Of a stretch of DNA of 50,842 bases, positions 2 through 32,477 are shown one piece after another (the stretch's first letter is position 1; each line of letters opens with the position of its first letter). The notes beneath the pieces are model-generated. The model had not been told where the DNA came from and searched no databases. It worked only from the letters and a program-made list of their open reading frames with translations. Made by a program: the position numbers and the translations under genes. The stretch is from an archaeon (GTDB lineage Archaea > Nanobdellota > Nanobdellia > SCGC-AAA011-G17 > VGLX01): positions 1-50,842 of the forward strand of contig JBDRNX010000037.1 in the NCBI GenBank assembly GCA_043810595.1. Reading direction: 5' to 3'.

Positions 2-835
2 CTTTTACCTATCATCCTGATTCTTTTCTTGGTTGTTGGCTGTGCCACAACTCAGACGCGGTGGGGTGAGTGGCAGAATTACGGTCACTGGTATCCCGCT
101 GGTAACGCTTGCACTAAAGTGTCTGTCAAATCATATCCTGATGGTGCGACAGTTTACGTAAACGGTGTTTTCAAGGGAAGAACCCCTCTCGACATCAACC
201 TTTCTTATCCCATCCTTAAGAGTGAGGATACAAAAATCCAATATGAGATTTCCCCTCGGGGCTTGTTTTCCGGGCCCTCTCAGAGAAAGATTGGGGAGCA
301 AAAGCAGGAAAAAACAAAAATCGAGAGCAAGTCTTACAGGGTTGAGTTTAGGGAAGAGGGTTTTATCTCTGCAGTCAGAACTGTCACAGTTCCCGAAACA
401 AAGGAGGTTGAAGTAATCCTTAAGACGAAGCCGATTCTGCAGGTCAACAACTTTTCCATCAGGAACAGTTCTACCAGGTCTGCAGCCCAGCAAGCTTTTG
501 ATGCAGTATTATTCAAGGCTTTTAAGGTTGAGACCGCCCAAGATGTAATCCATAGGAATCATCTGAATGCAAAGATGATTTCAGAGGTTTTTGTAATTAC
601 CTCTGATTGTAAAAATGCTGATTATGTCCTCAATGGGGAAGTCGTTGTTCAGAACAGGGACACCACCCTGTGGATGTATCTGGTTACGAGAAAAGGTGTT
701 CCAGTTGTGTCAAAAAACATAGTAATCAGCAGCAGCGATGTTAATCGCCTTTACGAACATATGAACTCCCTGACTAAAGTTGTGTTGGAAAACTTCCTTA
801 GCTCAGAGGAGACCCTGCTCAAAGAAAGGAGGTGA
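2..835 (+). CDS. PEGA-domain lipoprotein, 5' end outside window
   Basis: The frame is open from the window edge. LLPIILILFLVVGC reads as a signal peptide plus lipobox Cys, upstream of the track start at 29. VKSYPDGATVYVNGVFKGRTPLDINL fits the PEGA signature. Confidence 0.6.
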   Translation, partial: LLPIILILFLVVGCATTQTRWGEWQNYGHWYPAGNACTKVSVKSYPDGATVYVNGVFKGRTPLDINLSYPILKSEDTKIQYEISPRGLFSGPSQRKIGEQKQEKTKIESKSYRVEFREEGFISAVRTVTVPETKEVEVILKTKPILQVNNFSIRNSSTRSAAQQAFDAVLFKAFKVETAQDVIHRNHLNAKMISEVFVITSDCKNADYVLNGEVVVQNRDTTLWMYLVTRKGVPVVSKNIVISSSDVNRLYEHMNSLTKVVLENFLSSEETLLKERR

Positions 836-14305: not shown

Positions 14306-14539
14306 ATGAAGAAGATTATTTGTGCAGGTTTAATAATGGCAATGTCTATATTCGTGTTTTTAGGGGGTGTCTACCGACTGAAGCAAATGATGTTAGAGGT
14401 CAAGGCATTACCTACTGGGGAACAGGGCGTGGGGGCTATTGTGCTTATATTTATAGGAACTCTAATATGTGGAGTGTGTCTTACAACCTTTTTTTTGGGT
14501 CTGTGTAAATTAAGGGGGGATAATCAATTAATTAGGTAA
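14306..14539 (+). CDS. small 2-TM membrane protein
   Basis: In-frame ATG after GAAAGGAGAAGG. Reads MKKIICAGLIMAMSIFVFLGG... The longer track ORF from 14051 overlaps the previous gene. Confidence 0.5.
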   Translation: MKKIICAGLIMAMSIFVFLGGVYRLKQMMLEVKALPTGEQGVGAIVLIFIGTLICGVCLTTFFLGLCKLRGDNQLIR

Positions 14540-24521: not shown

Positions 24522-24561
24522 TGGAAAGTTTTATTATTCTTCTAGTTTAGTTTTATTTTGT

Positions 24562-24634
24562 GCGGTAGTGATCTAATGGCTAGGATACCACCCTCCCAAG
24601 GTGGTTGTTGCGGGTTCGAGTCCCGCCTGCCGCA
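24562..24634 (+). tRNA. tRNA-Gly (anticodon CCC)
   Basis: Hand-folded. Acceptor GCGGTAG/CTGCCGC, D stem ATCT/GGAT, anticodon stem CCACC/GGTGG with loop CTCCCAA, T arm GCGGG-TTCGAGT-CCCGC, discriminator A. No encoded CCA. Confidence 0.9.
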
Positions 24635-24727
24635 GTTTCCTTCTTTTCTAATTCCCTGTATGCAAAAACATGATACAACACTTATAAACTTCGCATAACT
24701 AAAGGCAGGCAGGAGTAACTGAGAAAG

Positions 24728-25996
24728 ATGGCAGAAGAAGATATATACGGGAACAAGGCAAGATACGAGAGGTTCGCAGAAAACCTTGAAGAGATTTTGG
24801 AAGAACCCACAGAACAGGGAAGGGGCAAGAGGAAGTATTGGTGCAAGAACAAGGCTAACCTCAAACACTACCGAACACTCACAAGAAAATTTGAGGTTGA
24901 TGACACCAGCTACATCAGAAGGCTTAAACTCATGTCTATCCTGAAGATGCTAACCCATCACATAAGCTGTGATCTGAAAGATGTTAATGGCATGGACAAA
25001 GACAATATAATAATAGAGCTGAGGAAAGGCATCTCACCAAGCAACCTGAGAAAGACAGAGAGAGACGTTAGGACAATAGGCAAGATACTATTCGGTGAGA
25101 AACAGCCCAAATTCTTCAAAGAGTTTGAGATAAAAACAGATGTGAGCAGGCAGACAGCACGCAAGGACAAGCTGAACTTTGAAGAGCTTGACAGGATAAT
25201 GAAATTCTTTGGCGGTGATGAAATGATGCAAGCATACCTCAGCCTGAGTTTCGAAAGTCTGGCAAGACCTCAAGAACTTTCTTACTTGAAGTTGAAAGAT
25301 GTGGAACTGCAAGATGCCTATGCTGTGATACAGGTCAGCGAACACGGAAAGGAAGGTGTTAAAAAACTTCTAAGCATAGACTCCTTTCCTTACTTGGTGA
25401 GATGGCTTAAAGCCCATCCAAACAAGGACAAGAGTAGCTTCTTATTCCTGAACAAACACAATAAGCAACTAACCCCTTATGCCGTCAATAAAAGGCTGAA
25501 ACAAGCTTGCAGAAATCTAAAGATAGACAAGCCAATCACCTGTTATTCTTTAAAGAGGGGTGGTGTTACTTTCAGAAGGCTCATAGGTGACAGCGACGTT
25601 GAAATACAGAGGATAGCAGGCTGGAAGACCACCCAGCAACTAAAAACCTATGACTTGTCAGACCAGCAAGATGTGTTCAAAAGGCAGTTAATCAAGAGGG
25701 GATTGCTGAAAGATGACAAGATAAGGATAGAAGCACCGAAAAGCAAACCCTGTCAGTTCTGCGGTGAGCTGATAGGCTTCAGCGACGACATATGCCCAAA
25801 ATGTCTTCATATCCTCAAAAAAGACATGGTGAAAGAGAGGATAAAGAAAGACGAAGAGCTTATAGCATTCATAGACGGAATACAAGAACTAAAGCAGACA
25901 CACCCAGAAGTCTTTGAAGCTCTTGTAGGGCTTGGTGAGAAGAAGGTTGAAGCCATGAAAGAAATCGAAAAGAAGAAGGGATTAAGCCCTTCTTAA
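24728..25996 (+). CDS. tyrosine recombinase / integrase with a C-terminal zinc ribbon
   Basis: Catalytic-domain blocks SLARPQELSYLKLKDV, YSLKRGGVT and GWKTTQQLKTYD. CQFCG...CPKC lies near the C-terminus. Confidence 0.75.
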   Translation: MAEEDIYGNKARYERFAENLEEILEEPTEQGRGKRKYWCKNKANLKHYRTLTRKFEVDDTSYIRRLKLMSILKMLTHHISCDLKDVNGMDKDNIIIELRKGISPSNLRKTERDVRTIGKILFGEKQPKFFKEFEIKTDVSRQTARKDKLNFEELDRIMKFFGGDEMMQAYLSLSFESLARPQELSYLKLKDVELQDAYAVIQVSEHGKEGVKKLLSIDSFPYLVRWLKAHPNKDKSSFLFLNKHNKQLTPYAVNKRLKQACRNLKIDKPITCYSLKRGGVTFRRLIGDSDVEIQRIAGWKTTQQLKTYDLSDQQDVFKRQLIKRGLLKDDKIRIEAPKSKPCQFCGELIGFSDDICPKCLHILKKDMVKERIKKDEELIAFIDGIQELKQTHPEVFEALVGLGEKKVEAMKEIEKKKGLSPS

Positions 25997-26167
25997 TTTT
26001 CTTATTTTCTTGCTGATTTTTACCAGATTAAAAGGTGGTTTTTCAAATTATGCTATTATAAAGCCCCCAAAATTTCGTGGTTACAAGGCTTATAACAACA
26101 AAATTCCGCAAATCTTGTAAATCTTAAACCTATATAAACCCTTCGAGGTCTTTGGATTTCTTGTGAA

Positions 26168-26350
26168 ATGGAGGTTAAAATGGTGAAAAAATATGATTAC
26201 CAAATAACTGAATTGCGGTTTGATAAAAACAGCCCTGAGTTATTGAAAGTAGAAAAAGCAGCAGAGAGTTTGGGATTAAAACTTTCAGCTTTTTGTAAAA
26301 TGTCGTCGCTGAAAGAGGCTCAGGAAGTTTTAAGAAAGAATCAAGAATGA
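26168..26350 (+). CDS. small hypothetical protein, possibly RHH-like
   Basis: 60 aa. The first ORF after the integrase. LSAFCKMSSLKEA resembles an RHH helix. Weak call. Confidence 0.35.
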   Translation: MEVKMVKKYDYQITELRFDKNSPELLKVEKAAESLGLKLSAFCKMSSLKEAQEVLRKNQE

Positions 26351-26475
26351 AACCTACCAAATCAAAAAAGAAAGAGGAGGATAAGGAAGATAAAATTGAG
26401 GCTTCAAAAAAGATATACGAACACCCTCTTGATCGGCTTATTAAAATTTTGAAGGGTGATGAAGTAAAAGAATAA
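26347..26475 (+). CDS. 42-aa charged peptide (not in the track)
   Basis: ATGA overlap with the upstream stop. Begins MKPTKSKKKEEDKEDKIEASKKIYEHPLDRLIKILKG... Confidence 0.25.
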   Translation: MKPTKSKKKEEDKEDKIEASKKIYEHPLDRLIKILKGDEVKE

Positions 26476-26490
26476 AAGAAAGAGGTTGAA

Positions 26491-26712
26491 ATGGAATCAA
26501 AAAAATCGAATCAAAAATTATTCTGCAAGAAGCTTGTGTTCTCTCATGCCAACGGCGAGATGGTTCTTTATGGGATTATTGAGTTTGATGATGGCGAGTT
26601 CTTGAAATTCAGAACTGCGAAGAGAGTTTGGACTTTGTGTAAAAGTCAGATTGTTCTCCTTACTGATACGGACAGGGTTTTTCAAGAAAATAACGAGGGT
26701 GATGGAAGATGA
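26491..26712 (+). CDS. hypothetical protein
   Basis: SD AGAGG is present. ATGA overlap with the downstream 601-aa gene. Confidence 0.45.
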   Translation: MESKKSNQKLFCKKLVFSHANGEMVLYGIIEFDDGEFLKFRTAKRVWTLCKSQIVLLTDTDRVFQENNEGDGR

Positions 26713-28514
26713 CAATAGATGATAATTTTGAAGAATTCAGAACCTTTGTCTGGAGAGAAATACTTCCATCATTTGCAAAACTACCTAATGGTGAGCCTAT
26801 GAAAGGGGCTGATAGACATGAATGCCAAAAAGGGATTTTTTTCACAAAAAAATATGGGGAACTAACCCAGCGAATTATTTATATTAATGAAACTTATGGA
26901 TACTCCTTTGACATAGATCAAATACGAGAAAAGTTTGAGCAACTTGAAGCTAAAAAAGATAAATTTTTAACGTCTGAAGAACAACAACCCAAAAATCCTT
27001 TCAGAAACCTACATTACGCAACCACACATTTACCTTATTACAAACATATAGACCAACTTCTAGGACTTTATGGAAAACATTACAATCCAATTAAAAAAGC
27101 TAGATATTACCAACTTGCAGGAGGGATAATACAGAGACCTATAAAGCTAGGGATGAAATACACAGATACAAGATTCCCTTGTGGTTATTCCTTACCAACA
27201 GAAGGTGGAAAAAACGACATAATTTACCTATTTAAAGATATAGTAACAAAAACAAAAAAAACTGAACAACATTTTTATACCATAGAAGAACCTGTGAGCT
27301 ATCACCCTGAACAACTTGTTGGGAAAGTAATAACTACTGAAATAAACAATCCAAAAGTCTTGTCAGGAGAAGCAACAAAACCTAAAAAGATAAGAGTTAA
27401 AGTTGAAAACAGAGGTCATTTTGATGCTGATTATGTGGATCTAGATGAAGCAAACACATTAATATTTCAGAATGATGAACAGACAAAACAAGCAAGGGAA
27501 TATATAAGTAAAGCTCTCAACCCGATAGGCAGGAACGAAATAACAAAACGGCTTGTTGATGACTTACCAGCAGAAAAGATAAGCTATGATCCTGTCTGCA
27601 CATTCAGTTTTTACTTCCAACCAGCAAAAATACCAGAAAACTTAGTGCTACAAGGATTCCTCAGAAGAAACCTTATGCCTGTTGGCAAAATAGAACCATT
27701 CCTTAACTATGGCAACGAAGAAGATTTCAAAAATAAAATTACAGATCCTAACTTCTCAAGACAAGAAACAAGAGACCAAATAATCAAACATTTAGAAAAA
27801 GTCAGAGAATCCACAAAAGGTAAAGACTTTGCTTTTACAGACGGAGCAAAAGAAAAAATTAACTATTACTTACCCTATTTAATTGCTGAAGGACAGGTTC
27901 ACAGCGAAAAAGTAGCTAATTACACAAAGCTCGTCAAGTGGACAATTCAAGATTACCTGATTAAGATGTCTTGCATACTTGCAGGAAGCTATTACACAAC
28001 CTTAGTCACCGAAGATTTTGTTACCTTAGCATTTATGGATTTAGTTGAGCTTCTCCAAGCGACATTTGATTTCATAAAGGAGTGGGTTATAGGTGATTTC
28101 AGTTATGGTGTAGGTTGGCAAGGGGCAAATTACAAAGAAAGAAACTGCCTAGAATACTTATATGAGAAAAAATGCTTCTCTCTTGAGACTTCAACAATCA
28201 GCATTTCTGATTTTCAAAGATACATTACAAACATCTATGCTGTTAAAGAAGATATGGCTAGAAAAATATGCAACCGATTCAAAAAGAATAGGTGGATTGA
28301 TAGCAAACAAATAGATCGCTATGAGACAAGGGTATGGCTTACATTCATACCTCAAGTTGAAAATCTAACATTTCAGGGTGATAAGGGTAATAAGGGTAGT
28401 AACCTATACGAGAGTGTATTTTCTTCAATAAATGACATCCTAAAGAGAGTATCACCCTTACCATCCTTCCCACCCTCAATAAAAGAAGAAGAGGTGGATG
28501 ATGGTAACTCTTAA
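26709..28514 (+). CDS. large orphan protein of the element (candidate replication protein)
   Basis: 601 aa, the largest ORF of the element. It has only a degenerate P-loop-like PTEGGKND and a Walker-B-like YVDLDEA. No family recognised. Confidence 0.5.
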   Translation: MTIDDNFEEFRTFVWREILPSFAKLPNGEPMKGADRHECQKGIFFTKKYGELTQRIIYINETYGYSFDIDQIREKFEQLEAKKDKFLTSEEQQPKNPFRNLHYATTHLPYYKHIDQLLGLYGKHYNPIKKARYYQLAGGIIQRPIKLGMKYTDTRFPCGYSLPTEGGKNDIIYLFKDIVTKTKKTEQHFYTIEEPVSYHPEQLVGKVITTEINNPKVLSGEATKPKKIRVKVENRGHFDADYVDLDEANTLIFQNDEQTKQAREYISKALNPIGRNEITKRLVDDLPAEKISYDPVCTFSFYFQPAKIPENLVLQGFLRRNLMPVGKIEPFLNYGNEEDFKNKITDPNFSRQETRDQIIKHLEKVRESTKGKDFAFTDGAKEKINYYLPYLIAEGQVHSEKVANYTKLVKWTIQDYLIKMSCILAGSYYTTLVTEDFVTLAFMDLVELLQATFDFIKEWVIGDFSYGVGWQGANYKERNCLEYLYEKKCFSLETSTISISDFQRYITNIYAVKEDMARKICNRFKKNRWIDSKQIDRYETRVWLTFIPQVENLTFQGDKGNKGSNLYESVFSSINDILKRVSPLPSFPPSIKEEEVDDGNS

Positions 28515-28800
28515 AATGCCCCTCAAAAGCACGTTGCCCCCACCCAGACAGCTAAAATTGGGCAGGGAATACCCAACCGCCAATAAAAAAATAATCGATT
28601 TTGGGGTAGCTAAGGTTTGTCAGAAGCACCACTTGTTTTATTTAGGGCAAGAATGTCCAGTTTGTCAGAAGGAACGGCTTAGGAATAAAAGCCTGATGGA
28701 GTTAGCCCTTTCAACTCATCGTTGTCCAAGATGTGGTTTTGAGTTAAAAGGCTGGATAATCACAAGCACCCCAGAGGGAGAGGGCGAACATGACAAGTGA
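28498..28800 (+). CDS. double zinc-ribbon protein
   Basis: CQKHH...CPVCQ and CPRCG. Overlaps the upstream gene end. Confidence 0.45.
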   Translation: MMVTLKMPLKSTLPPPRQLKLGREYPTANKKIIDFGVAKVCQKHHLFYLGQECPVCQKERLRNKSLMELALSTHRCPRCGFELKGWIITSTPEGEGEHDK

Positions 28801-28880
28801 GGTTTTTGTTGGTTTGATATGTTTCCTTTTGGGATTTGCGGGTGGGATTTCCTTTGCAGAAAGAATAGAAAAAAGGGGTA

Positions 28881-29099
28881 ATGATGGAAGAGAAACTTAA
28901 CCACCAGCTCATAGTTCGGCTTCCAAAATGGACGATGGACGAACTAAGAAACCTCGCACAAAGGACAGGCTTGCCCCGAAGCATAATTGTGAGGGCTTTC
29001 CTCAATTCTGCCCTGTTACAACTGAAGAACGTGCCAACACAGAACATCATTTTCAAGTTTGAGAGCATAAAAATAGGAAGGAATGATAATGAGCCTTGA
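28881..29099 (+). CDS. ribbon-helix-helix (CopG-like) DNA-binding protein
   Basis: QLIVRLPKWTMDELRNLAQRTGLPRSIIVRAFL has the beta-strand-helix-helix pattern of RHH regulators. Confidence 0.55.
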   Translation: MMEEKLNHQLIVRLPKWTMDELRNLAQRTGLPRSIIVRAFLNSALLQLKNVPTQNIIFKFESIKIGRNDNEP

Positions 29100-29310
29100 T
29101 AAAAAGAAGCAACCGATCATGCTAATCAGAGAAGAAGAGCAGGAATTATTTAGGGGAAACTTTATCTCTGTCGGTTCTGATGGTTGCGAAGTTCACTCTA
29201 CAACCGAGCCATTAGAAAAGGTTGAGGCTTGCATCAACAGGCTGATAAAAAAACACAGAAAATTCATGCTGGAAAAGAAAAAGAACAAGATAATTCTGGG
29301 AACGGGATAA
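29083..29310 (+). CDS. hypothetical protein
   Basis: 75-aa ORF overlapping the upstream stop region. Same strand. Confidence 0.4.
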   Translation: MIMSLDKKKQPIMLIREEEQELFRGNFISVGSDGCEVHSTTEPLEKVEACINRLIKKHRKFMLEKKKNKIILGTG

Positions 29311-29313
29311 AAA

Positions 29314-29706
29314 ATGTCACTAACCTTCATAAAACAGATGCTCAAAGATGGGATGGAAGAAAGGGAGTTAAGAACTCTGCTTGTAACAGATTTCACACAA
29401 GAAGAGCTTGACATTCTGATACAGGAAGCATCCGAACAGCTAAAGCAGGAAGCAGAAGAACAACAAGCAAGACAAAAAATAGAGGCAGAACCCTCAGACC
29501 TCACAGGTTTTTGTATGTTTTGTCAAACGAAAAGACGGATTATAAACCCGCAGGTCGAAACTATAAGCACAACGAAGAAACTAAAGGTTAAATGCGTGTT
29601 TAAAGACACTTGTTCCCGTTGGAAGATACCTAAAGAGGTTAAAAAGACAGAAAGAATAAAGGGAAAGTGTGAAGTGTGCAATAAAACAATAACAACTTTC
29701 ATATAA
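29314..29706 (+). CDS. hypothetical protein with a C-terminal zinc ribbon
   Basis: CMFCQ ... CEVCN. Acidic coiled-coil N-terminal half. Confidence 0.45.
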   Translation: MSLTFIKQMLKDGMEERELRTLLVTDFTQEELDILIQEASEQLKQEAEEQQARQKIEAEPSDLTGFCMFCQTKRRIINPQVETISTTKKLKVKCVFKDTCSRWKIPKEVKKTERIKGKCEVCNKTITTFI

Positions 29707-29899
29707 CACCCCACCTTAAAAGAGATTTAAGCGTGATTTTCTGCATATCGGTATGAAACCGTGAGAAAACGCCCCGCTAAAGGGCTGTTTCTCGGCAAAC
29801 CGCTTGTCCTGTCCTATCATACATATAATATATTCTACGGAGTAAAAATCGTTTCTTTGATTTTTTTTTCATAAAAGGGTAAGAGAAAAAGAGAGCTTG

Positions 29900-30103
29900 T
29901 CAGGGTAGCCTGTGGGTGGCTTCAGCCCTGCTTGGGAAGGGTGGCTTCTGTGATATTACCTCACCATGCTTCCGCATCCTTCTGATGTTTGTTCTTATGC
30001 ATCCAACACCCTTATGTAGCCTGTCAGATAACTCTCTTGCTGTCAAGCTATCATGCTTCTCTAATAACTTTATTATCTCTTGCTGTGTCACGTTTGCCAC
30101 CAC
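29900..30103 (-). CDS. winged-helix transcriptional regulator
   Basis: QQEIIKLLEKHDSLTARELSDRLHKGVGCIRTNIRRMRKHGEV is a typical wHTH. Confidence 0.55.
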   Translation of the reverse strand: MVANVTQQEIIKLLEKHDSLTARELSDRLHKGVGCIRTNIRRMRKHGEVISQKPPFPSRAEATHRLP

Positions 30104-30576
30104 CGAAGATTTGTGATAGGGGGCTTGAAGTTAAAATGGAAATGGATTTTTTAGGTCTTAGTCTCAAGCCCCCCATCAGCATAAAGGGAGGTGTGGGGGA
30201 AGAAGAAAAACCCCCACGAAAAGTTGGAAGAACATTTACTTAACACTCACCACCTCAATCCTCTGCCCCTGCCTCAAAAAGTTAGGAAAAGTTATTATGC
30301 CATTACGATACTTGGCTTTGAGTTCTATTATAAGAGTGATGTCAGACCAATCCTTCTTTCGTTTATCTGCTTTCATTTCTTCCTCTTGACCTTCTTCCTC
30401 TTGACAACCTCAGTATGTGAGCCTAACCAACCATTAACTATCTTGTATGTGATGACATATTGATCCTTCTTGTTTGCTTTCTTCTTCATAAACCGATAAA
30501 AAGAACCAAACCTTATAAGTGTTGTATTGATTTTCTTAATACAAACCTTATTAAGTCCAGAATATTTAATTGATTT

Positions 30577-30960
30577 ATGGGTTTGAAAGAAATTGCTGTC
30601 AAGGTTAAGAAGGTGTTGGGCGGTAACACCATAGGCAAAGGAATGGCTCCTGAAGAGGTAGAATTAGCTTCTTACAAGAAGAGGGAGTATCTTGACGGGG
30701 TTAAGAGGCAGGTTCACAGATACAGGATAGAAGATTCTAAGAGGATGTTCACAGGCAACACATTTGAGAGAAGCAAACGCACAGTCCTTAATCCGTCTGG
30801 GAAGAAGAGAAAGAAAAGACCGAGGAAGAGCTTAGTAAAACGACTTAGGAGGCTTTACCCAACAGCGAAAGTAGAACGGGGAAAACCTGAGTGGATTCAT
30901 CACAGACCGCCCATCGATGTTATAGGAAAGAAGTCAAGTGGCAATTTCGGTTTTAAATGA
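30577..30960 (+). CDS. highly basic hypothetical protein
   Basis: 127 aa with the Lys/Arg-rich stretch GKKRKKRPRKSLVKRLRRL. Confidence 0.45.
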   Translation: MGLKEIAVKVKKVLGGNTIGKGMAPEEVELASYKKREYLDGVKRQVHRYRIEDSKRMFTGNTFERSKRTVLNPSGKKRKKRPRKSLVKRLRRLYPTAKVERGKPEWIHHRPPIDVIGKKSSGNFGFK

Positions 30961-31140
30961 GATATAAGGATTGTATGCGAGAAACAGATACAAAAACAAA
31001 AACTTTATTAAGGTAATTCTATTATTGCTTTTAAGGTCAAAGAATTATGCGGTATGGTAAGGTAAGGCAGAAGGTTTGAACTTTGCCTTTGATCTCGTTC
31101 TAAACCTTCTAATCTTTAAACGATTAGGAGGAGTTATAAA

Positions 31141-31353
31141 ATGAAAGAAAAATATTATGACGAAGATGGGAACTTAATTGACAACAACAGAATATGGACT
31201 TTTACGATAACAGGAGAGAAATACTATTATAAGAATGGTGAGAGGATAATCTTGAAAAAAGGTGAACTCCCAGAGATGAAAGTCTATGTAGGTAAAAACT
31301 TTACAAACACATTAACGGGTGAGAAGATACCTTTGAGACAAGATAAAAAGTGA
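31141..31353 (+). CDS. hypothetical protein
   Basis: SD TAGGAGGAG lies upstream. 70 aa. Confidence 0.45.
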   Translation: MKEKYYDEDGNLIDNNRIWTFTITGEKYYYKNGERIILKKGELPEMKVYVGKNFTNTLTGEKIPLRQDKK

Positions 31354-31406
31354 AGAGAAAAAGATATAAGAAAGTTATAATACCTAACAATAACACTAAG
31401 GGGGTT

Positions 31407-31772
31407 ATGAAAATTAAAAGAATCATTATTTTGTCATTATTACTTTTAGGATTATCTTTGGGTTGTGAACAAAACGGGTTTTCTTATGTTTCTATAAAGG
31501 ATTTAAGTCAAGATGCTCCTGCTTACGTAGGGCAGAACATCAGTATTTCTGGAAAGCTGAATGACCGCTTAGGTGGGTATAGTTTGGAGGATAGTGAAGG
31601 ATTTTGGGTTTGGATTGAAGAGAATTGTATAGAAACACAAAGAAGATATAATTTTAATTCTGAAATCTATAGTGGCAAAGGTGTTTGGCTTTCTGGAAAA
31701 GAAGCAATTTATGGATTTAGTTTTGGATTAGAATACAAGTATCGATTGAGTTGTGTGTCTCCATTAAGTTAA
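31407..31772 (+). CDS. lipoprotein
   Basis: ATG after AAGGGGG. Reads MKIKRIIILSLLLLGLSLGC-EQNG, a signal peptide plus lipobox. The track start at 31350 is probably too early. Confidence 0.5.
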   Translation: MKIKRIIILSLLLLGLSLGCEQNGFSYVSIKDLSQDAPAYVGQNISISGKLNDRLGGYSLEDSEGFWVWIEENCIETQRRYNFNSEIYSGKGVWLSGKEAIYGFSFGLEYKYRLSCVSPLS

Positions 31773-31791
31773 AAATTTAGAAGGAATAAGA

Positions 31792-32079
31792 ATGGTAAAT
31801 AGAAATGTTTCTGAAGAATGGCTAGAACAAATTAAGAGTGCAATAAATGAGCTTAAAAACTCTTCAAGAAAGCAAACAGACTTTAATGAACTTCTAGCCT
31901 GTGCCACAGGTATTTTGGCTGTTGGTGTACTTTATGATTTATTTCTAAAAGATAGAATTGCAGCTAACCCTTATGCTTTAATAATTAGTAGTGTTATATT
32001 GGGATTTGCTCTTATTATCTTAATGGTTAGGTTTATCCTTATCATATGGATACTAGCATTTAAAAGAAAGAGGTATTAG
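31792..32079 (+). CDS. membrane protein (2 TM)
   Basis: Hydrophobic helices ACATGILAVGVLYDLF and LIISSVILGFALIILMVRFILIIWILAF. Confidence 0.45.
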   Translation: MVNRNVSEEWLEQIKSAINELKNSSRKQTDFNELLACATGILAVGVLYDLFLKDRIAANPYALIISSVILGFALIILMVRFILIIWILAFKRKRY

Positions 32080-32082
32080 TGT

Positions 32083-32289
32083 TTATTCCTGTGCTTTCTT
32101 CTTTAGGGTTAGGTTGCCTTGCTTGTCTATCTCAACCTCTAAGGTGTCTTTCTTCTTCCAGCCCTTAGCCCTGACTATCTGAGAAGGTAGGGAAACAACA
32201 TAAGTTCCGTTCTTTAGTTGTTGAAGCCTCATAGAATATAAGTTTGTATAGAAACCTTTATATACTTTATCTTCTATTATTATATACAA
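32083..32289 (-). CDS. AbrB/SpoVT-family DNA-binding protein
   Basis: YVVSLPSQIVRAKGWKKKDTLEVEIDKQGNLTL is the looped-hinge-helix signature. The true start may be the internal Met at 32232. Confidence 0.55.
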   Translation of the reverse strand: MYIIIEDKVYKGFYTNLYSMRLQQLKNGTYVVSLPSQIVRAKGWKKKDTLEVEIDKQGNLTLKKKAQE

Positions 32290-32391
32290 GCGTATGGGCT
32301 TTGAAAATAAGGAATTCTGCTCGCCTGCCGCATTGAAAATTGGTTGGAAGCATAATCCTTAAAAACTGTGCTTCGGTTTCTAATATTATGC

Positions 32392-32477
32392 GGGCTTGTA
32401 GTCTAGTGGCTATGAGGAAACTAGCAAACACCACCTTCACACGGTGGAGGTCCCCGGTTCGAATCCGGGCAGGCCCA
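32392..32477 (+). tRNA. tRNA-Val (anticodon CAC) with a 13-nt insertion in the D arm (putative non-canonical intron 32416-32428)
   Basis: Acceptor GGGCTTG/CAGGCCC, T arm CCCGG-TTCGAAT-CCGGG, anticodon stem CCACC/GGTGG with loop TTCACAC. Removing GGAAACTAGCAAA restores the D stem GTC/GAC and a 73-nt cloverleaf. Confidence 0.7.

Follow-up and report, generated by a model that had tools for sequence, protein, structure and literature searches.

The window analyzed here is an entire archaeal contig of 50,842 bp (contig C37 of the genome G000, 0.81 Mb in 45 contigs, 92% complete), and its subject is a 7,698-bp segment inserted between the genes for tRNA-Gly(CCC) and tRNA-Val(CAC) and bounded by an exact 11-bp duplication of the tRNA-Gly 3′ end. 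This segment, which encodes a tyrosine integrase, a large helicase-like protein and a series of small proteins, is probably an integrated cryptic element, that is, an integrative plasmid-like replicon of a DPANN archaeon of the Woesearchaeota/Pacearchaeota type. The tRNA-Gly(CCC) gene (24562..24634, plus strand; ends at 24561/2 and 24634/5), found by ARAGORN and with Rfam (RF00005, 64.1 bits), is the integration target and is still intact. Its last 11 nt, CGCCTGCCGCA (24624..24634, the left attachment core or attL), recur as a second exact copy at 32322..32332 (attR), 7,698 bp further on. A gap of 59 nt separates this second copy from the tRNA-Val(CAC) gene (32392..32477, plus strand; Rfam, 54.6 bits), which forms the right chromosomal flank outside the element. 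In terms of tRNA structure, the 11-mer spans the three final nucleotides of the T stem followed by the whole of the 3′ acceptor strand and, as its last base, the discriminator A, so that the duplication ends exactly where the mature tRNA body ends.

An 11-bp att repeat at this tRNA had been proposed in an earlier reading of the letters of the window (hereafter, the original prediction), and it was borne out: the contig contained exactly two copies of the 11-mer, while two copies arose in none of 100 dinucleotide-preserving shuffles of the contig. A longer or better direct repeat that would redefine the borders was also sought, and none was present between 20 and 40 kb or anywhere in the window downstream of the tRNA-Gly end. 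With regard to base composition, the segment has a G+C content of 37.6% compared to 40.8% for the rest of the contig, which makes it the lowest 7.7-kb window of the contig and agrees with the lower G+C originally reported, although the dip is modest. Approximately 83% of the element is coding, with 16 open reading frames (ORFs), one of them doubtful and all of them open.

The left flank, composed of the endonuclease V gene and tRNA-Gly, was found in three genomes of the same genus at 73–82% DNA identity. In two of these congeners (G003 and G001), tRNA-Gly is followed by tRNA-Val after 3–5 nt, with synteny kept on both sides, which corresponds to an unoccupied site; both are other species rather than the same strain, and their att core differs at 3 of the 11 positions. 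In the closest relative (G002), the tRNA-Gly 3′ end is identical to that of the window and the 11-mer is present in a single copy. Here, an unrelated segment of 1.9 kb lies between tRNA-Gly and tRNA-Val, with one reverse-strand ORF coding for a Cys-rich protein of 584 amino acids (aa) with a signal peptide (locus L014, 14538–16292; G002:C1). This ORF matched no Pfam family, and the segment contained neither an integrase nor a flanking repeat of the tRNA end. To judge from these arrangements, the inter-tRNA site looks like a recurrent insertion hot spot. Approximately 45 nt immediately upstream of tRNA-Val are common to G000 and G002 only.

By BLAST, homology between G002 and the window restarts at position 32348, 15 nt past attR. 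The comparison with the congeners therefore sets the left border of the insertion at the exact tRNA end and the right border within 15 nt of the second repeat, so that this repeat sits where an attR is expected, as had been predicted. Synteny among the related genomes is thus interrupted exactly at the element. The case in which relatives carry the same genes without the repeat or the integrase did not occur, since the relatives lack the genes of the element: the three congeners carry neither its integrase nor its helicase, and neither was found in the six other genomes of the same family searched (72–95% complete). At the level of the order, the helicase was present in 5 and the integrase in 29 of 240 genomes.

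The integrase gene (24728..25996, plus strand, 422 aa) starts 93 nt from attL. Residues 149–310 of its product matched PF00589 (E = 3.3e-14, 53.5 bits vs. a cut-off of 27.1), and the comparison with PHROGs yielded phrog_1, integrase, with an E value of 3.7e-16. The ORF is whole and both att cores lie outside it, in line with the intact tyrosine integrase beside the tRNA described originally. Residues R180, K208, W299 and Y308 are present and conserved in the family alignment. Box II reads Y274-S-L-K277-R278 (YSLKR), with both K277 and R278 being candidates for the role of the second arginine in the family alignment; in a more distant member (L022), the corresponding residues are H-L-F-R-H. Furthermore, a C-terminal zinc ribbon of the form CxxC...CxxC (C342, C345, C356 and C359) is found family-wide. 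A total of 414 homologues were detected and, on sequence grounds, the protein is a member of a large DPANN family of integrases with a C-terminal zinc ribbon. In the predicted attP of the circular form, an imperfect inverted repeat, AAGGAATT ... AATTCCCT (window positions 32309–32316 and 24650–24657), surrounds the core, its arms lying 5 nt before and 15 nt after it. These arms could be integrase-binding sites.

The surroundings of the integrase were compared with six loci found via the helicase and integrase searches and with a genome survey of 20 integrase loci, 14 of which bear a tRNA. In the six search loci and in 9 of the 14 tRNA-bearing survey loci, int starts 60–260 nt past the tRNA gene, and the longest repeat of the tRNA 3′ region found downstream ends between −1 and +4 nt from the tRNA end. 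Since two records belong to both sets, these loci amount to 13 distinct ones; L023 and L093, which were seen in part, bring to 15 the number of other distinct loci in which a tRNA is followed by int. The length of the repeat was 11–18 bp in 14 of these 15 loci. The longer exception was L088 (289–411 and 11681–11803; G150:C24), with a repeat of more than 20 nt that covers much of an intron-bearing tRNA-like gene; this gene was called tRNA-Phe(aaa) twice by ARAGORN, and the att would far exceed that of the other loci. In L093, which lies on a short contig, only a 9-mer was found. The delimited elements among these loci (n = 11) measured 4.1–13.6 kb. Of the 20 surveyed loci, five had a tRNA but no detectable repeat and six had no tRNA detectable by ARAGORN or Rfam, for which contig ends, larger elements or decay are possible reasons.

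Clustering of the ORFs over 13 delimited elements, in which the integrase is present in 13 of 13 by construction, placed an AbrB-like gene in five, with the same minus-strand position beside attR in each, and the helicase in four, with every other gene being private to one to three of the elements. Because of these private genes, the set is a mosaic built on an integration module, unlike the conserved genome of a virus family. The small integrative plasmid or provirus family envisaged in the original prediction was right in kind, as the insertion, the att repeats and the congeners indicate, while the word family has to give way to a mosaic set sharing the integrase, sometimes the AbrB-like gene and sometimes the helicase. 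A related 8-kb element located at a tRNA-Glu gene (L045, identical to L082; NCBI JAIOTD010000025) has an integrase with 57% identity and, in place of the helicase, a 535-aa reverse transcriptase (RVT_1 plus HTH_40; 16195–17802 of L045).

The largest protein of the element (26709..28514, plus strand, 601 aa) had been described as an orphan, which it is not. A word-indexed search retrieved 46 relatives with 42–66% identity over residues 90–595, and an exhaustive HMMER search yielded at least 354 clusters at E < 1e-3, 146 of them below 1e-30. At the same time, the family had no match in Pfam, PHROG or NCBIfam, and its profile had none among the PDB sequences. An AlphaFold model built from 32 sequences (pLDDT 84.8) predicted a helical N-terminal part of approximately 100 aa, an AAA+ core at about residues 105–460 and a C-terminal winged helix at about residues 480–570. 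The top PDB matches of this model in Foldseek were all MCM subunits (probability 1.0, approximately 12% identity). With VIA-align, Z scores of 23–24 and a root-mean-square deviation of 3.4 Å over approximately 300 residues were obtained between residues 105–570 of the model and residues 492–867 of Mcm2 or 290–603 of SsoMCM, a region that covers the MCM AAA+ tier and the winged helix. All structural alignments begin at residues 104–109, and the N-terminal OB-fold/zinc tier of MCM is absent. Among viral folds (BFVD), the matches were phage primase-helicases and DUF3987 proteins.

On the basis of the model, the 601-aa protein is read as a deeply divergent MCM-type replicative helicase without the MCM N-terminal tier. 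Its distance from the cellular protein was evident in a search of the genome with the PF00493 profile, which found the host MCM on contig C32 but not the 601-aa gene, and in an hhalign comparison of the helicase family with the host MCM, which gave a probability of 6% and aligned the QLxGG motif and the Walker A region (LPTEGGKN vs. GDPGAGKS). Residues G167, K168, E247, N276, R319 and R320 are invariant in the family and D246 is nearly so. They include the Walker A-like PTEGGKN (G167, K168, N169), in which N169 replaces Ser/Thr in at least 90% of the family, and the Walker B-like D246 and E247.

The relatives of the helicase comprise short forms of approximately 520–650 aa and long forms of 780–950 aa. 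The N-terminus of the long forms is an archaeo-eukaryotic primase (AEP) domain, recognized as Prim-Pol, AEP-TOTE, a weak LigD Prim-Pol match or PriCT_2, and the order in these proteins is an N-terminal AEP primase-polymerase, with or without PriCT, followed by the AAA+ helicase and the winged helix. The closest long relatives (805–832 aa, 63–64% identical) retain the primase domain; since both forms are present among the closest relatives (63–66% identity), this domain was gained or lost recently. The comparison of the element proteins with virus and plasmid databases that had been suggested originally was run for the helicase, and tblastn returned no match in 50,697 phage and archaeal-virus records and none in 72,556 plasmids. 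A scan of IMG/VR with the helicase alignment produced one distant relative (28% identity) on a viral contig.

Relatives of the helicase at 30–33% identity were also seen on contigs of deltaproteobacterial/Syntrophaceae metagenome-assembled genomes (L031, L033 and L034), as well as in Methanobacterium, ANME-1, Methanosarcinales and Altiarchaeota; either the helicase family crosses domains or the binning was mixed. A 25-nt exact match between the helicase gene (approximately 27761–27785) and contig C3 of the same genome (G000:C3:2094–2118, L104) was considered as a CRISPR spacer and rejected, because the site on C3 falls within an 865-aa ORF and is not surrounded by repeats. Both copies encode ...QETRDQII..., and the match is probably due to chance in A-rich coding sequence.

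The remaining genes of the element are small. Between the integrase and the helicase genes, all on the plus strand, lie a 60-aa ribbon-helix-helix (RHH)-like ORF (26168..26350; weak TacA1 match, E = 0.032; 35% identity to a NikA-like ORF in L025), a 42-aa ORF from the ORF list with no family match and of doubtful coding status (26347..26475), and a 73-aa ORF overlapping the helicase start (26491..26712). For the latter, weak alignments and gene maps indicate that a small ORF keeps this position in related elements, with an identity of just 19–25%. Downstream, again on the plus strand, the end of the helicase gene is overlapped by the gene for a 100-aa zinc-ribbon protein (28498..28800) with CxxC pairs and weak zinc-ribbon matches. 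This is followed by a 72-aa RHH protein (28881..29099; RHH_1, E = 0.0017; RelB-like, E = 8e-4), a 75-aa ORF for which no relatives were found (29083..29310) and a 130-aa protein that is acidic and coiled at its N-terminus, Cys-rich and zinc-ribbon-like in its C-terminal part, and without a significant family match (29314..29706). A 67-aa winged-helix (wHTH) regulator is encoded on the minus strand, against the main gene direction (29900..30103; HTH_24, E = 6.1e-5).

Beyond this regulator, the plus strand encodes a very basic 127-aa protein (30577..30960; 36 K+R), a 70-aa ORF (31141..31353), neither of them with a family match, and a lipoprotein-like, putatively exported ORF of 140 aa (31350..31772), whose likely start at M20 (31407) would give 121 aa and for which no homologue was found among 5.8 billion proteins. 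A 95-aa membrane protein with two long hydrophobic helices follows (31792..32079, plus strand; single-sequence AF2 model, pLDDT 73.5). It was considered as a spindle-virus capsid, a candidacy that was abandoned since no BFVD match was better than E = 1, and its CorA-like match in PADLOC (E = 0.004) reflects the two-helix hairpin only. Finally, a 68-aa DNA-binding protein with the AbrB/MazE fold (32083..32289, minus strand; PF04014, E = 6.1e-7) adjoins attR. Its neighbors are the plus-strand 95-aa membrane ORF and attR, no PemK/MazF-type or other toxin ORF adjoins it on the minus strand, and in the circular form the gene would be divergent from int across attP.

Most of the small-protein assignments of the original prediction stood, some of them in part. 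The AbrB (29.7 bits vs. a cut-off of 24.7) and wHTH (22.9 vs. 21.9) regulators were confirmed, whereas the RHH protein fell just below its threshold (18.7 vs. 20.5). The very basic protein has a pI of 10.9. The lipoprotein does show a signal peptide and a lipobox-like LSLGC motif, albeit recognized by eye only, and the zinc-ribbon ORFs amount to two Cys-rich, zinc-ribbon-like proteins whose family matches are weak or not significant. Likewise, the statement that no capsid, terminase, relaxase or toxin is recognizable agreed with scans of the element proteins against Pfam, PHROGs and NCBIfam, which gave no capsid, spike, portal, terminase or packaging ATPase; relaxase, coupling protein and VirB4-type ATPase had no match in Pfam or NCBIfam. 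For an integrative conjugative element, 7.7 kb is too small to hold a transfer apparatus. A PADLOC scan for defense cargo gave nothing meaningful, and no host-benefit or defense cargo is obvious in the element.

Under the plasmid-like reading, the integrase would recombine the tRNA gene with an attP core identical to the 11 nt at the tRNA 3′ end, so that the tRNA is rebuilt and the displaced copy becomes attR. Integration would thereby follow the lambda/pNOB8-type pattern, with the int gene kept whole. The excised 7.7-kb circle would replicate as a plasmid, with the MCM-like helicase, here without a primase domain, loading at the origin and recruiting the primase and replisome of the host. The choice between integration and the free state may be controlled by the small DNA-binding proteins, four in number (two RHH, one wHTH and one AbrB); among them, the AbrB-like protein is the strongest candidate for a regulator of int or a directionality factor, because its gene faces int across attP. 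That the element is still mobile is inferred only from sequence features, namely the identical att copies, the retained family-invariant residues of the integrase and the helicase, and the open ORFs.

Several observations weigh against this reading. The helicase of the window lacks a primase domain and its Walker A motif is GKN rather than GK[ST], so that ATPase activity is an assumption. No convincing replication origin was found in the element, where only weak or short tandem and inverted repeats occur, such as 2 × 14 nt at 30377–30405. A scan of JGI metagenome contigs with a degenerate 27-nt attL/attR/attP/attB pattern had a single match, an unrelated high-GC contig; it revealed neither an excised circle or attP junction nor an unoccupied site of the same strain, a negative that carries little weight. 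In addition, repeats of 11–16 bp are, taken locus by locus, only modestly rarer than expected by chance in AT-rich genomes (null expectation of 3–13%). They are nevertheless credible because, over many kinds of tRNA, they keep the same register relative to the tRNA end, and the case for att rests on this fixed position together with the empty sites. Lastly, virion proteins of an unknown type are possible, since most of the cargo genes are without relatives.

That the segment consists of ordinary lineage-specific chromosomal genes beside a chance 11-bp repeat, and was never mobile, is extremely improbable. Although 11 bp is short and AT-rich genomes are rich in short repeats, the 11-mer was never duplicated in the 100 shuffles, the empty sites of G003 and G001 are precise, the gene distribution is patchy, and a tyrosine integrase at a tRNA shows the same geometry at 15 other distinct loci. 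We also regard as improbable an immobilized remnant, once integrated but now unable to excise or replicate and kept as a genomic island. The att copies are identical to each other, the integrase and the helicase retain every family-invariant residue, and all ORFs are open and densely packed. The loss of the primase domain still held by the closest long relatives would fit such a remnant, as would the lack of a second copy of the element or its integrase in its own genome and of any near-identical copy or free form among everything found. Primase-less short helicases of approximately 520–650 aa are, however, common in the family and for this reason are probably functional.

A provirus or a satellite of an unknown DPANN virus, with the integrase and the helicase serving lysogeny and replication, is unlikely, though it retains a modest share of our credence because small archaeal viruses and satellites can have structural genes that are unrecognizable (bioRxiv 10.1101/2025.02.15.638363). 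The late genes (the 127-aa basic, 70-aa, 121/140-aa exported and 95-aa membrane proteins) would then, with the same low probability, serve to assemble, or to take over, a small particle of the enveloped or spindle type. In small archaeal viruses and their satellites (pSSVx/pSSVi and SRCEs), primase-helicases of the plasmid type occur together with capsid proteins that are tiny, hydrophobic and only one or two in number (bioRxiv 10.1101/2025.02.15.638363). The two long hydrophobic helices of the 95-aa protein, the very basic 127-aa protein, which could condense DNA, and the distant helicase relative on the IMG/VR contig are all consistent with such a role, and the candidate late genes all lack recognizable relatives, which is usual for archaeal virion proteins. 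On the other hand, the putative late genes recur in none of the 12 other delimited elements, no capsid, spike, packaging ATPase or other virion family was matched in the database scans, the morphogenetic AAA+ ATPase of spindle viruses is absent, and the helicase had no counterpart in the phage and archaeal-virus records. Quite doubtful is the more specific proposal of a temperate DPANN virus or satellite with an undescribed virion type, in which the 127-aa, 121-aa and 95-aa proteins form the structural set, and the zinc-ribbon integrase and the AbrB-like protein flanking attP are an unrecognized integration-excision switch common to many small DPANN elements. A plasmid-like cryptic integrated element is favored because the cargo is mosaic and non-recurring.

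The kind of element is already known, namely, the archaeal cryptic integrated element (CIE), in this case one that sits at a tRNA 3′ end and encodes a tyrosine integrase together with a helicase of the MCM type. The CIEs of Thaumarchaeota (Krupovic et al., 2019; PMC6563490) are likewise small (mostly <20 kb), integrase-bearing and mainly integrated at tRNA genes with short direct repeats (att median of 17 bp, down to 8 bp), and also share MCM, Cch-like or primase-helicase replication genes, RHH/wHTH regulators and the absence of virion genes. Unlike these, the present element has a DPANN host, an integrase subfamily with a C-terminal zinc ribbon, a helicase family undetected by the Pfam MCM model and a recurrent AbrB-like gene at the attR end. 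As in pNOB8-type (class II) and SNJ2-type integrases (Badel et al., 2021; PMC8371274), int stays intact and the tRNA 3′ end is targeted, with the att of SNJ2 being as short as the acceptor end (PMC8371274). Box II has a tyrosine in place of the first histidine, as in the pNOB8 consensus R...YxxR...Y (PMC8371274), but K277 followed by R278 (YSLKR) at the arginine position and the extra zinc ribbon set the protein apart; this comparison is one of features, and the integrase was placed in neither named family by sequence.

According to the passages devoted to them in PMC6563490 and PMC5862659, the MCM elements of Euryarchaeota (TKV/pTN3-like elements and Methanococcales proviruses) resemble the present one in being tRNA-integrated with an MCM-type protein as the sole large replication protein, and it is presumably through their helicase that the host replisome is recruited (Krupovic et al., 2010, as cited in those passages). 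As described there, these MCMs are host-captured, readily recognized and equipped with the N-terminal OB/Zn domain, whereas the helicase studied here lacks this domain, has no PF00493 match and is unrelated in sequence to the host MCM. The architecture of its longer relatives is that of the fusions of AEP primases with MCM-like, DUF3987 or DUF927 (Cch) helicases, such as BcMCM and the Cch of SCCmec (Kazlauskas et al., 2018; PMC5862659); the copy of the window differs from them in having no primase domain, no Pfam model and a GKN Walker A motif. The 601-aa protein is in keeping with the replication proteins of mobile elements that have been catalogued as combinations of AEP and an AAA+ helicase (PMC5862659). 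Finally, pSSVx, pSSVi and the SRCE satellites of spindle-shaped viruses (SRCEs of 2.7–9 kb; bioRxiv 10.1101/2025.02.15.638363) have a similar size range and a plasmid-type replication module, and pSSVi is also integrative, but, unlike them, the element contained no detectable homologue of a spindle-virus ATPase or capsid.

The value of the locus lies in the poorly charted DPANN mobilome, in a helicase family that has not been modelled and in an integrase family whose att sites are consistently of a very short design. To our knowledge, there are hardly any descriptions of mobile elements from freshwater and sediment DPANN archaea, and a limited full-text search of the literature found no paper on small tRNA-integrated replicons in Woesearchaeota or Pacearchaeota, for which this locus offers a cleanly delimited DPANN example. 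The integrase subfamily, present in approximately 12% of the genomes of the order, marks islands of 4–14 kb at tRNA 3′ ends with very short att cores, which would escape standard island finders. Similarly, an MCM-fold helicase family of at least 354 clusters, with a GKN Walker A motif and often fused to AEP, widens the known spread of MCM-like proteins among mobile elements, and the AbrB-like gene, recurrently positioned across attP from the integrase, provides a reusable handle on such elements.

A minor observation concerns the right flank. The tRNA-Val(CAC) gene was missed by ARAGORN and seen by Rfam only, owing to an insertion of approximately 13 nt, GGAAACTAGCAAA, between the D arm and the anticodon stem. 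The tRNA-Val copies of the window (32392–32477), L014 (approximately 14340–14420, minus strand), L015 (3933–4008) and L016 (approximately 70–145, minus strand) were compared. The insertion occurs in this genome and in G002, and the tRNA-Val of G003 and G001, otherwise alignable, is without it, which places its gain or loss within the genus. This pattern is as expected of a short non-canonical intron, which GGAAACTAGCAAA may represent.

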